Below, piece by piece: positions 54,323 through 56,968 of a DNA stretch of 64,000 bases. The translations under genes were made by a program, and so were the position numbers. The stretch covers positions 3,168 through 67,167 of the forward strand of contig JACPKU010000004.1 of assembly GCA_016186915.1 (NCBI GenBank). Reading direction: 5' to 3'. The notes below the pieces were generated by a model, which was given only the letters and a program-made list of their open reading frames with translations, did not search any database and had not been told where the DNA came from. Position 1 is the stretch's first letter, and every line of letters begins with the position of its first letter. Origin of the DNA: Candidatus Doudnabacteria bacterium (GTDB taxonomy: Bacteria > Patescibacteriota > Doudnabacteria > UBA920 > O2-02-FULL-48-8).

Positions 54323-56968
54323 TTAATCACCAGTTAGTTTTCCTGGCCACTTCTCGATCATCAGCAGATCTTTGTGATTGATCTGCCAGATGGCTTCAGT
54401 CACAAACGGCATGAAAGGATGTAAGAGTTTGAGCTGGGTTTCCAACATAGTTTTGAGTAGCAACTGCGCGGAAGCGCGTTTTTTTTCCGCCTTCGCCGGG
54501 GCTTCGGCGGACAAGTTGTCTGCCAGTTTGGGTTTAGCCTCTTCGATTACTTTGTCCGCAAAAGTGTGCCAGAAATAGCGGTACAAATCCTCGGCCGCAT
54601 GTGCAAAGTCATATTTCTCAAGTTTTTTGGTGATGGATTGGGCGAAATTGTCGAGGTCCTTGAGGATTTTTTTGTCCTCGGGCAATAACTCCCCCCGACC
54701 CCCTCTTATTTTAAGAGGGGGAGTAGCTGCAGTTTTGTCCCCCCTTAATATAAGGGGGGATTGAGGGGGGTTATAATCCTGGGTATTCTGCAGCACAAAC
54801 CTACTTGCGTTCCAGATTTTGTTGGCGAAGTTGCGGTAGCCCCTGACCTTGTCTTCAGATAATGGCAAATCATTGCCGGGAAGATTGCCTACCATCAAAG
54901 CCATGCGCAAAGCGTCCGCGCCGTAGACTTCGATAATGCCCAAAGGATCAATGACATTGCCTTTGGATTTGCTCATTTTTTGTCGGTCCTTATCTCGCAC
55001 TAACCCATGTAAATAGACGGTCTTGAAAGGAATATCTTTTAGTAAAAAGCCAGTCATGAGAATCATTCTGGCCACCCAGAAAAATAAGATATCGTAGCCG
55101 GTCTCCATCACGTCTGTGGGATGAAAGGTTTTTAGATCCTTCGTCTGCTTGGGCCAGCCCAGGGTTGAGAATGTCCAAAGTCCTGAAGAAAACCAGGTGT
55201 CTAGGGTATCAGGGTCTTGTTCGAAGTTAGTACCGCCGCAAGCAGGGCATTTCGTAGGTGCTGTTTCTGAAACGGTCATCTGCCCGCAGCCCTCTGTTTG
55301 GTCTTGTTTTGAAAACGGAATAAATTCATAATCATAGATAATGGCCGGAGTGGTCTTGGTTACTTTTTCGTCAGGATGCATTCGTTTAAAGGCAGCGATT
55401 AACTCAGGAGTAGTTTTATATTTGTCGCTATGGATCATATCCGGTAGTTCAATCCCGCCTACTGTAGTCTTGATCACGTTGGTGATAATTCCCTTCCCCA
55501 GTAAAATTCGGTTGCCACTATTTTTAAAGACAAAACGATCTCCGACATTAAATTTATGGTCACGGAGTCTATAAGTTCGCCGCTTGCCGCCGAGAAGTTC
55601 TGGCACGATGCTTGAGTGGAAACCCATTCGTGGTTGACTGGTTTTTTCTACCCCACCGCAATACCACACAGGAATTTGGTGACCATACCAAATCTGTCGG
55701 CTGATGCACCAATCGCGCAGATTATCAATCCAGTGGAAGTAAACTTTTTTAAATCGTTCAGGAATGATCTTGACCTGGCCGGATTGCACGGCCTTTTTCA
55801 TCAATTCTTTCAGCGTGATCCGTGATCCGTGATCCGTGATCTGTTCATTCACATCCACAAACCATTGCTCTTTAATTTGTGGTTCAATTATCCCGCCACC
55901 TCGAGAATTAGTGGCAATGCGGTGAGTGTATTGTTCGTCGATTTTTACAAGCAACCCTTGTCGTTTAAGCTTTTCCACGATTAAGGGCCGGGCTTTTTTA
56001 ATATGTTGGCTGGCAAATTCTCCGGCAACGGGCAACAGTAAGCCTTTAAAATCTATGATTTGTTCAAATTCTAAATTGTGTCTTTGGGCGATGTCAAAAT
56101 CAGCCAGGTCATGCCAAGGAGTGATGGTCATGACCCCTGTGCCAAATTCCGGATCCACGGATTCATCCTTGATTACTGTGGCGGTCACCTTGCCGTTCAT
56201 CCAATCCACTTCCAGTTGCTGGCCGTGTTTGTAATTTTTATACCGTTTATCTTTCGGATGCATCACGACATATTTATCTCCGAACTTGGTTTCAGGCCGG
56301 GCAGTGCCGATTTCAAACGGGCCGTATTTCAAATAATAAAACGGCACTTGTTCCTCTTTCCATTCGATTTCGTCATCTGACACCGTGGTTTGAAGTTTGG
56401 GATCCCAATTCACAATTCTTTTGCCGCGATAAATCAACCCCGCTTCGTACATTTGTTTGAACGCGGTGCGCACGGCCAAGGTTCTTGCTTGATCCAAAGT
56501 AAAAGCTTCACGCGACCAGTCGCAACTGGAGCCCAGACTTTTGATTTGGCCTACAATCGTATCATGGCTGGCTTGGGCGAATGCCTCCACCCGTCTTAAA
56601 AATTCTTCTCTCCCCAAATCAAATCTGGTTTTGCCTTCGCGTTTATAAATTTCCGATTCAACTTTGGATTGAGTGGCAATGGCGGCATGATCTGTGCCAG
56701 GCAGCCACAAAGTTTTTCTGCCACGCATGCGTTCAAAACGAATCATAATGTCCTGCAGCGCCAACATGACAGCATGCCCGACATGCAGGGTGCCGGTGAC
56801 ATTCGGTGGCGGCATGGAAATCGTGAATGGTTTGCCATGGTTTGGGTTAGTTTGTGGATTGTCCGTCCAAGGCGGATGCGCCTCTGGCGCAAAATAACCG
56901 GAAGATTCCCAAAGCTTATAAAGCTTGGCTTCTTTGCTTTGGTCGTAGTGTTTTGGCAATTCTTTCAT
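54323..56968 (-). CDS. valS: Valine--tRNA ligase
   Basis: HIGH region PPPNVTGTLHVGHA, KMSKSKGN, and ValRS editing and anticodon-binding domains. Confidence 0.9.
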   Translation of the reverse strand: MKELPKHYDQSKEAKLYKLWESSGYFAPEAHPPWTDNPQTNPNHGKPFTISMPPPNVTGTLHVGHAVMLALQDIMIRFERMRGRKTLWLPGTDHAAIATQSKVESEIYKREGKTRFDLGREEFLRRVEAFAQASHDTIVGQIKSLGSSCDWSREAFTLDQARTLAVRTAFKQMYEAGLIYRGKRIVNWDPKLQTTVSDDEIEWKEEQVPFYYLKYGPFEIGTARPETKFGDKYVVMHPKDKRYKNYKHGQQLEVDWMNGKVTATVIKDESVDPEFGTGVMTITPWHDLADFDIAQRHNLEFEQIIDFKGLLLPVAGEFASQHIKKARPLIVEKLKRQGLLVKIDEQYTHRIATNSRGGGIIEPQIKEQWFVDVNEQITDHGSRITLKELMKKAVQSGQVKIIPERFKKVYFHWIDNLRDWCISRQIWYGHQIPVWYCGGVEKTSQPRMGFHSSIVPELLGGKRRTYRLRDHKFNVGDRFVFKNSGNRILLGKGIITNVIKTTVGGIELPDMIHSDKYKTTPELIAAFKRMHPDEKVTKTTPAIIYDYEFIPFSKQDQTEGCGQMTVSETAPTKCPACGGTNFEQDPDTLDTWFSSGLWTFSTLGWPKQTKDLKTFHPTDVMETGYDILFFWVARMILMTGFLLKDIPFKTVYLHGLVRDKDRQKMSKSKGNVIDPLGIIEVYGADALRMALMVGNLPGNDLPLSEDKVRGYRNFANKIWNASRFVLQNTQDYNPPQSPLILRGDKTAATPPLKIRGGRGELLPEDKKILKDLDNFAQSITKKLEKYDFAHAAEDLYRYFWHTFADKVIEEAKPKLADNLSAEAPAKAEKKRASAQLLLKTMLETQLKLLHPFMPFVTEAIWQINHKDLLMIEKWPGKLTGD
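54699..54770. repeat. Cluster of C5/G5-clamped palindromes in frame inside valS
   Basis: ccccctcttattttaagaggggg and ccccccttaatataagggggg. They encode about 25 extra residues (PPQSPLILRGDKTAATPPLKIRGGRGE) relative to other ValRS. Confidence 0.7.
55817..55844. repeat. Tandem heptamer (GATCCGT)x3-4 in frame inside valS
   Basis: gatccgtgatccgtgatccgtgatctgt encodes [10 protein letters not shown]. Confidence 0.8.

Follow-up and report, generated by a model that had tools for sequence, protein, structure and literature searches.

The DNA considered here is a 64,000-nt stretch of contig JACPKU010000004.1 from a Candidatus Doudnabacteria bacterium (hereafter the window; G+C content 45%), whose minus strand encodes valyl-tRNA synthetase (ValRS, gene valS) and, inside that gene, an 88-nt element built from two palindromes (Table 1). 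Both the HIGH and the KMSKS motifs are intact in the valS product, which is identical to a protein annotated as class I tRNA ligase in a metagenome-assembled genome (MAG) of Candidatus Doudnabacteria and matches the T. thermophilus ValRS 1GAX with E = 5e-169. We consider it probable, at roughly 80%, that a short interspersed repeat, nested-palindromic and non-autonomous, has arrived in frame in valS and that positions 54686-54773 are a copy of it with two hairpins.

On the plus strand, the element reads TAACTCCCCCC-GA-(CCCCCTCTTATTTTAAGAGGGGG)-AGTAGCTGCAGTTTTG-(TCCCCCCTTAATATAAGGGGGGA)-TTGA-GGGGGGTTA, with the hairpins in parentheses. The first-pass annotation of this DNA had described a pair of C5/G5-clamped palindromes in frame within valS, and direct reading bears this out, both stems being perfect over 10 bp around 3-nt loops. 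The distance between the two, which it had placed at 20 nt, measures 16 nt (54722-54737), and of the further G6 runs it mentioned, one is present beside the hairpins (54765-54770), while the other extra run is C6 (54691-54696). An 80-nt stretch of valS contains 6 of the 53 runs of C5+ or G5+ in the window. The motif CCCCC N0-2 TTAWWWTAA N0-2 GGGGG occurs in the window at the two valS sites only, against 0.00 expected from 100 shuffles, and the 131-nt region around the hairpins folds at -54.6 kcal/mol (z = -3.8). In translation, the segment QDYNPPQSPLILRGDKTAATPPLKIRGGRGELLPEDKK follows directly C-terminal to the YRNFANKIWNASRF helix, and the insert reads QDY-NPPQSPLILRGDKTAATPPLKIRGGRGEL-LPEDKK in context. 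A T-run follows neither hairpin on either strand, which places the pair outside the definition of an intrinsic terminator, and a terminator reading was rejected given this lack of a U-tract and the location inside a coding sequence (CDS). Likewise, intron, intein and CRISPR-repeat readings were rejected in view of the open frame, the length of only 88 nt and the lack of a regular array. A scan of the region against Rfam 15 yielded chance-level matches throughout, the best reaching 21.6 bits against a gathering score of 140.

The valS pair is clearly one member among many: its palindromic family is dispersed and multi-copy, with members both between genes and in frame in unrelated genes. The core of what the first-pass annotation had envisaged, a mobile palindrome family tolerating in-frame residence, is in this respect supported. 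When one genome per species was scanned with the hairpin pattern, at least 124 sites in at least 120 loci were obtained, and among the 124 listed sites in 120 loci, conservation extends to flanking sequence outside the search pattern. The family unit spans 47-54 nt: TAAC-(N)-C5-6 on one side and G5-6-(N)-GTTA on the other enclose, each at a distance of a few nt, a hairpin that has C5-6/G5-6 clamps and a TTAAWTTAA core. Its arms are inverted repeats and its boundaries are sharp, with similarity ending abruptly beyond TAAC and GTTA. There are two main hairpin subtypes, A (CCCCCCTTAAWTTAAGGGGGG) and B (CCCCCTCTTAAWTTAAGAGGGGG, found in dozens of loci), and one of each is present in valS, with local scores of 25.1 and 26.3 bits, respectively, for R1, a covariance model derived from 22 aligned family copies. 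As full-length units in the window, R1 recognizes 54686-54735 on the minus strand (38.7 bits, E = 6e-9) and 54724-54773 on the plus strand (37.8 bits, E = 1e-8), and both valS hairpins with their outer arms match the family by pattern as well as by R1. Each unit has one good arm, whereas the spacer is common to both as a poor second arm, and this spacer possibly represents degenerate inner arms. The arrangement of two hairpins within one arm pair recurs in frame in the YchF gene of a bacterium of the candidate phyla radiation (CPR; locus L230), where it reads ATAACCCCTCC-CAA-hairpin-AGTT-hairpin-TGA-GGGGGAGTTAT. Across 698 kb of pattern-selected loci, R1 returned 270 matches (both strands counted), many of which the pattern had missed; element density in the carrier genomes is therefore high. 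Among the matches listed, carriers include Doudnabacteria, Saccharibacteria, Amesbacteria, Giovannonibacteria, Zambryskibacteria and Komeilibacteria of the Patescibacteria as well as Nitrospirota, Thermodesulfobacteriota/Deltaproteobacteria, Chloroflexota and some Gammaproteobacteria, and several copies lie on contigs of 1-5 Mb. On IMG/VR viral contigs (L127-L148), about 12-13 of 23 hairpin-pattern matches have full TAAC/GTTA arms; predicted viral or proviral DNA therefore carries the family too and could be a vehicle between phyla.

Table 1. The valS gene, its inserted element and other hairpins of the window (ORF, open reading frame; R1, the covariance model of the family).
Feature	Position	Strand	Remarks
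valS (valyl-tRNA synthetase) CDS	54323..56968	-	881 aa; host gene; from the ORF list
whole inserted element, 88 nt	54686..54773	.	arm, hairpin B, 16-nt spacer, hairpin A, arm; residues ~N733-L761 (minus strand)
left outer arm TAACTCCCCCC	54686..54696	+	B-type; fits consensus TAAC-N-C5-6; coding strand GGGGGGAGTTA = G-R-G-E-L
hairpin B, CCCCCTCTTATTTTAAGAGGGGG	54699..54721	.	perfect 10-bp stem, 3-nt loop; encodes PPLKIRGG
spacer AGTAGCTGCAGTTTTG, 16 nt	54722..54737	.	encodes K-T-A-A-T; aligned by R1 as mismatched weak arm of both units
hairpin A, TCCCCCCTTAATATAAGGGGGGA = (T)CCCCCCTTAATATAAGGGGGG(A)	54738..54760	.	perfect 10-bp stem, 3-nt loop; encodes SPLILRGD
right outer arm GGGGGGTTA	54765..54773	+	A-type; fits consensus G5-6-(N)-GTTA; coding strand TAACCCCCC = Y-N-P-P
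hairpin, 12 bp	9484-9513 (R1 span 9483-9515)		T-runs; between a CDS end and a convergent tRNA-Leu
polA hairpin	38936-38956 (R1 span 38934-38958)		R1 13.1 bits, E 0.24, not significant
hairpin	39583-39611		not listed by R1 at E <= 10; no Rfam match

In the anticodon-binding domain, the element occupies a loop that joins two helices, and this loop was examined in an alignment of the 120 best ValRS matches, i.e. the identical protein and 119 homologues, the closest of which shares 65% identity. From the helix end QNT to the next helix start L..D.KIL, this loop measures about 10 residues in most of the 119 homologues; in the Doudnabacteria protein it is about 24 residues longer than in these homologues (insert of about 22-27 residues) and about 22 residues longer than in 1GAX, in agreement with the approximately 25 residues that the first-pass annotation had counted as added between the conserved block and the following helix. 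The first-pass annotation had also held that protein-level conservation of the insert among relatives, regardless of DNA palindromy, would speak against a mobile element; its ortholog alignment, now performed, finds the insert in 0 of the 119 best homologues, and such conservation is therefore absent. Several other CPR ValRS in the same alignment contain different odd peptides at this very loop, and the underlying DNA reads CCCCTCTCCTTCCAGGAGAGGGG then GGGGGAGAGGTGGTTAT in P0003, CCCCCCCCTTGCAGAGGGGGGG then GGGGGGGTTAC in P0040, a nested TACCCCC..(CTCCCCCTAACATAGGGGGAG)..GGGGGTA in P0005, and ATTCCCGCCTTCGCGGGAAT in P0065. Related C/G-clamped hairpins with GGGGG..GTTA-like arms are present at the ValRS loops of L121, L122 and L123, whereas P0002 and L126 have neither insert nor hairpin there. 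In an AlphaFold2 model of the valS product (77 homologues; mean predicted local distance difference test score, pLDDT, 91.5), the insert is the sole internal segment with a pLDDT below 50 (residues 739-758) and is modelled as coil linking helices 705-728 and 763-784; presumably, it would be translated as a disordered Pro/Gly/Arg-rich surface loop. When the 34-residue insert peptide was searched exhaustively with HMMER against 1.84 billion representatives, 3 matches resulted, all to unrelated repeat proteins; the dimer in its exact form is therefore not widely copied, at a sensitivity that is low for a single 8-12-residue hairpin. Elsewhere in the synthetase, a domain of about 110 residues is inserted in the catalytic core (~55290-55640; residues ~445-560) and is shared with a subset of relatives; the homologue P0005 has a weak Pfam ASCH match there, and shorter homologues (~700-720 aa) do without the domain.

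Residence inside genes is not peculiar to valS. Open frames of at least 200 codons contain 23% of the 124 listed sites, whereas random positions from these loci fall in them in 74% of cases; most of the family is thus intergenic, with genes not excluded. Its in-frame hosts are unrelated and include leucyl-tRNA synthetase (LeuRS), YchF, MnmA, an RNase J-like protein, RarA, a GT2 glycosyltransferase, NadB, a NifE/N-like protein, HemC, FolD and YggS, as well as a P-type ATPase, MacB, HypE and FdhA. Because the unit is a palindrome, both orientations encode N-x-P-x-(P/S)-P-L-(K/N)-L-R-G-(G/D/E), while two of the three frames per strand meet a TAA in an arm or in the hairpin core, and consequently only one insertion in three per strand can survive, provided that it falls in a permissive loop; this explains the tolerance of in-frame residence noted in the first-pass annotation. 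Judging from the RRFLEKVW helix motif, the LeuRS copy of two Saccharibacteria appears to occupy a loop equivalent to the valS site. At the YchF loop, inserts recur as they do in ValRS, including a dimer of the same architecture as that of valS. In CPR YchF (alignment P0121-P0240), the loop after ILYVANxK contains many repeat-type peptides, such as APAQAGAHSLDPRFRGDDN, VIPAKAGIQAWIPDQVRDD and SVILSPSSLPQGKLSEESMRSFGLRPQDDN, and several palindromic families appear to use the same permissive sites. The valS insert would be tolerated as neutral or slightly deleterious selfish DNA, and its loop would be a hotspot since selection permits survival there, not necessarily through targeting.

The family hairpins also bracket small ORFs of DUF559, which is to our knowledge a very large family with a solved fold and no known function. 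With the DUF559 domain of a Saccharibacteria LeuRS (L110, below) as query, nine DUF559 ORFs were found in the pattern-selected loci (Pfam PF04480, E = 1e-31 to 1e-36), 6-7 of them directly bordered by family hairpins and arms, in CPR bacteria and Deltaproteobacteria. Their only solved relative is PDB 3HRL, an 'endonuclease-like protein', and the putative catalytic residues E-x-D-G-x-x-H, D and R are invariant in all 6 aligned ORFs. As these loci had been selected by the hairpin pattern, an ascertainment bias had to be removed, and for this reason 80 metagenome loci were chosen by DUF559 similarity alone, using a query stripped of hairpin-encoded residues and scan patterns taken from core motifs. 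In this set, the R1 density is 2.68/kb within 120 nt of DUF559 ORF ends and 0.097/kb elsewhere in the same loci, a 28-fold difference. An element adjoins the DUF559 ORF in 29 of the 80 loci and does so on both sides in 17; among the 20 loci most similar to the query, the proportion with an adjoining element is 17/20. The junctions are fixed as well. In 12-14 DUF559 loci, the right arm abuts the start codon (GGGGGAGTT directly followed by ATG AAA TTC, MKFLRND), and DUF559 ORFs end inside the next element, at the TAA of TAAC or at a hairpin TAA. The idea that the stop codon is always that of the TAAC arm was rejected, since this is true of only 6/80 loci. Variant hairpin and arm types accompany variant DUF559 genes, and the type bordering a Doudnabacteria DUF559 gene (L061) is the one inserted in ValRS P0003. 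Where both neighbouring elements could be typed, B upstream with A downstream is the commonest pair (4/8), which is also the order of the valS hairpins on the plus strand. The resemblance between the valS spacer and the junction of a DUF559 cassette (GGGGGAGTTATG) is weak, at 8 of 12 identical bases. In one Saccharibacteria LeuRS gene (L110, 1112-1612), a complete DUF559 endonuclease-like domain resides in frame; it is bordered by CCCTCCC hairpins and AACCCCTCCCC/GGGGAGGGGTGGTT inverted repeats, and its position is the exact site of a 60-nt palindromic element in another LeuRS (L029).

Based upon this linkage, several proposals can be made regarding the origin of the valS copy. Firstly, the association suggests that DUF559 maintains or spreads the repeats. 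The family would then be the cognate repeat of small DUF559 genes, which are endonuclease-like and of the PD-(D/E)xK type, in an arrangement reminiscent of a REPtron, the unit formed by a repetitive extragenic palindromic (REP)-associated gene and its own repeats. Secondly, the valS dimer would correspond to the two ends of a DUF559 cassette minus its ORF, or to a dimer made in trans. That the family spread with DUF559 as its cognate enzyme and reached valS by one of these two routes is, in our judgement, an evenly balanced proposition. More broadly, DUF559 proteins could be the dedicated nucleases of a cross-phylum nested-palindrome superfamily, constituting a second system of the type formed by REPs and REP-associated tyrosine transposases (RAYT), only with a PD-(D/E)xK/Vsr-like nuclease, and ORF-less derivatives could seed Pro/Gly-rich loops in essential genes of CPR and subsurface bacteria, the valS double hairpin being one of them. 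We advance this broader scheme tentatively, with slightly less than even confidence.

A number of observations weigh against this account, whether against the in-frame arrival of the repeat or against the role given to DUF559. In the R1 alignment, the valS dimer has inner arms that can barely be recognized, the 64-kb window contains this one family locus only by pattern and R1, and a DUF559 ORF was not found anywhere within it. The association between DUF559 and the repeats is one of linkage, not of activity. No closely related pair of empty and filled sites was found, as the available relatives are too distant (65% identity for ValRS, 76% for the YchF of another host) for the junctions to be defined. 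Matching 2-nt flanks accompany 5 of 47 copies versus 2.9 expected, likewise with no empty site for comparison. Multiples of three are not favoured among element lengths, and copies within CDS did not show the divisibility by three that had been considered. That the insert is translated is an assumption based on its open frame. MAGs are the source of nearly all related copies, many of them on long contigs or in genes typical of their lineage, and some taxonomic assignments could be binning errors. In favour of the account, pairing in the inner stem amounts to 99.2% across 142 distinct copies, with both-side changes at 6/10 pairs, in an alignment that was fitted to the model and in which both strands of a palindrome were counted. 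From these figures, symmetry itself appears to be maintained across the family, and the perfect valS stems would reflect either a recent insertion or such maintenance.

The alternative that deserves most attention accepts a mobile repeat family and denies DUF559 the role of mobilizer. DUF559 would instead be a passenger, a preferred neighbour or a target, and the repeats would spread by way of a RAYT/IS200-like transposase or by host recombination or replication at the hairpins. The window without DUF559 is as this alternative would have it, and so is the lack of a transposition-typical target-site duplication among the 47 copies; R1 detects a neighbouring element in only 29/80 DUF559 loci, and in L072 the DUF559 ORF is itself interrupted by an element, so these genes can be targets. 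However, neither a passenger nor a mere target would readily account for the 28-fold element density at ORF ends, for the fixed junction of start codon and arm in many independent metagenomes, for hairpin and arm variants that travel with DUF559 variants (exemplified by L061 and ValRS P0003), or for the putative catalytic residues that are invariant in the six aligned ORFs. We regard this alternative as unlikely, though still a serious one.

An appreciably more doubtful suggestion is that the valS hairpins are retained for a role at the RNA or DNA level, as an exapted regulatory structure that pauses ribosomes, stabilizes the mRNA or offers a protein-binding or cruciform site. Both stems are perfect despite encoding a probably unconstrained peptide loop, the fold is far better than that of shuffled sequences (z = -3.8), and pairing is kept family-wide through both-side changes. 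Set against this, hundreds of unrelated settings contain the same element, 119 homologues manage without the hairpins, there is no Rfam match, the missing U-tract excludes a terminator, and a recent insertion explains the perfect stems equally well. It is highly improbable that the anticodon-binding domain gained an adaptive protein insertion specific to this lineage, to which palindromy would be incidental. The gene is intact with its frame open, class I synthetases do gain idiosyncratic insertions, and this ValRS also bears the inserted ASCH-like domain (Pfam match in P0005); yet disorder is predicted for the peptide (pLDDT < 50), none of the 119 ValRS relatives examined conserves it, and the same peptide, from the same DNA, recurs in many unrelated proteins and also between genes. 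We give equally little credence to palindromes that originated locally in a permissive loop, through template switching or slippage primed by hairpins, and not from an element that already existed. Such a process would fit a loop that repeatedly contains different palindromes across lineages, and also the lack of a detected target-site duplication among the 47 copies, but local mutation would not recreate the arms, spacing and core of a cross-phylum family at E ~1e-8. An assembly or sequencing artefact is the least likely of all, since the single MAG contig and the protein cluster with one member are offset by the preserved frame, length and conserved flanks of the gene and by the presence of the family in assemblies of many unrelated projects, including several-megabase contigs.

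When compared with known systems, the element would by analogy be REP/RPE-like selfish DNA in frame (RPE, Rickettsia palindromic element), and in-frame selfish palindromes are already known. What sets the family apart is its nested architecture, TAAC/GTTA ends, lack of a GTAG/CGTC tag, cross-phylum spread and linkage to DUF559. Like REPs and REPINs, which are imperfect G+C-rich palindromes of 20-40 bp, its members are short G+C-clamped palindromes (here 23-nt hairpins), present in high copy, mostly extragenic and often dimeric. Intragenic REPs are documented, more than half of them being dimers or groups that encode 20-30 residues, and REPs can border a RAYT gene with its own repeats to form a REPtron (PMC3733652). 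The former are an exact parallel of the valS copy, and the latter likewise joins a dedicated gene to its own bordering repeats, with the difference that the gene considered here is a DUF559 endonuclease-like gene and not a HUH/Y1 transposase. The valS-family unit further differs from REPs in being a nested palindrome with TAAC/GTTA arms and in that the GTAG/CGTC tag is absent from the 22-copy consensus and from 123 listed copies; the GTAG within the valS spacer is not a family feature. REP families are usually species- or genus-specific, whereas the repeat sequence of the valS family is common to several phyla. RPEs are selfish palindromic DNA found in frame in many unrelated Rickettsia housekeeping genes, where they encode a peptide compatible with the fold (PMC10969869). 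The valS family similarly resides in frame in unrelated conserved genes at surface-compatible sites; RPEs, however, are restricted to Rickettsia, measure about 100-150 bp and are not known to have a partner gene, while the unit described here is about 50 nt (47-54; 88 as a dimer), cross-phylum and DUF559-linked, a distinction drawn from size, host range and partner gene.

Bacterial MITEs (miniature transposable elements that carry inverted repeats) such as Correia, ERIC/RU and Nezha are non-autonomous, lie in and between genes, and occasionally create in-frame fusions (PMC2229807, PMC2759123, PMC10969869). They share with the valS family terminal inverted repeats, sharp ends and copies both between and within genes. 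The valS family differs in that no clear target-site duplication was detected in 47 copies, in a size at the very low end for MITEs, and in that the ORF between its elements is DUF559 and not a known transposase family, with no IS-type transposase having ends that match. Vsr-like (EDxHD) homing endonucleases, for example I-Bth0305I, are small nucleases, related to the very-short-patch-repair endonuclease, that spread their own genes (PMC3239194, PMC2677866), and the DUF559 domain in frame inside a LeuRS gene is reminiscent of them. These enzymes reside in introns or inteins or beside split genes and target one unique site, whereas the DUF559 gene sits between copies of a dispersed repeat; the likeness is one of description, the sole structure match being 3HRL. 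In fungal mitochondria, GC clusters and double-hairpin elements are short mobile G+C-rich hairpins, some of them double, which occur inside coding genes and are translated. Coding palindromes within protein genes are also described from the mitochondria of Nematomorpha (PMC6649704). Both groups differ from the valS family in being organellar, in lacking any sequence relation to it and in having no such nuclease gene. Neither the family nor its peptides nor a link between DUF559 and repeats is described in the open-access papers searched, among which most subscription journals are missing, and an earlier description may therefore exist.

The first-pass annotation had extended the same family to three further hairpins of the window, one in polA and two placed at 9485 and 39581, on the basis of their C5/G5 clamps. 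R1 does not sustain this assignment: the hairpin at 9484 is borderline (17.8 bits, E ~0.01), that of polA falls short of significance at 13.1 bits, and the third is unlisted at E <= 10. The 9484 hairpin is an ordinary terminator-like hairpin that falls within the intrinsic-terminator definition. The C5/G5 clamp alone is not what defines the family; the TTAAWTTAA core and TAAC/GTTA arms are. The polA hairpin is nonetheless part of an insert of about 26 residues relative to the Taq, Klenow and Bst polymerases (38897-39010, just before the HDE motif), which consists of three hairpins, namely a 13-bp AT-rich stem, ATCTCCCCCTCGGGGGGAGAT and GCCGCCAAAGGCGAC. A second in-frame family is formed by TCCGCC-NNN-GGCGGA-TCCGCC-TTY-GGCGGA double hairpins at 37482-37511 and 38465-38494, hosted by a 5'-exonuclease ORF (36708-37616) and the polA ORF (37670-39178), respectively, where they encode the peptides SAEGGSAFGG and SAGGGSAFGGK; four exact 15-nt units are present in the window versus 0.09 expected, and the polA copy amounts to a 9-residue insert relative to Taq. 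A decayed copy of this TCCGCC family may also exist in the C-terminal region of valS (54488-54512), where TCCGCCGAAGCCCCGGCGAAGGCGGA on the minus strand encodes LSAEAPAKAEKK and the stretch exceeds that of T. thermophilus ValRS by about 12 residues. On the minus strand, tsaD contains two small inserts relative to solved TsaD structures (57877-57951 and 57568-57587), one being the 13-residue KLRQHKSLIPERS, encoded by a nested hairpin, and the other ATTCCCGCGAAAGCGGGAAT, which encodes SRFRGN. The ATTCCCGCGAAAGCGGGAAT hairpin type is also found at the valS loop of the CPR genome L124 and beside an A-type hairpin in L068. As polA and tsaD contain palindromic inserts that belong to other types, in-frame residence is a general phenomenon in this genome and involves several families. 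Separately, a 36-nt palindrome, TTGACAAC(C/T)ACCATGCGATAGGTGGGT(G/A)GTTGTCAA, is present in two copies (41713-41748 and 54144-54179), each between convergent gene ends and with compensatory differences; a bidirectional terminator present more than once, or a further REP-like family, may account for it.

If the broader scheme is correct, the ORF-less derivatives would continually seed short Pro/Gly-rich loops into essential genes, both in subsurface bacteria and in those with small genomes (CPR). On our reading of the valS element, even the essential genes of streamlined genomes of about 1 Mb bear such elements, at a few repeatedly used permissive loops. Odd inserts of low-complexity appearance, such as PPLKLRGG or SPLNLRGD, in many predicted proteins from groundwater and sediment metagenomes would then be explained as translated selfish DNA and not as lineage-specific features, with consequences for the annotation, alignment, phylogeny and structure prediction of CPR proteins. 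Should the link to DUF559 be functional, a large domain of unknown function would acquire a testable role, and a second, mechanistically different, domesticated or selfish nuclease would be seen to uphold a cross-phylum hairpin family.

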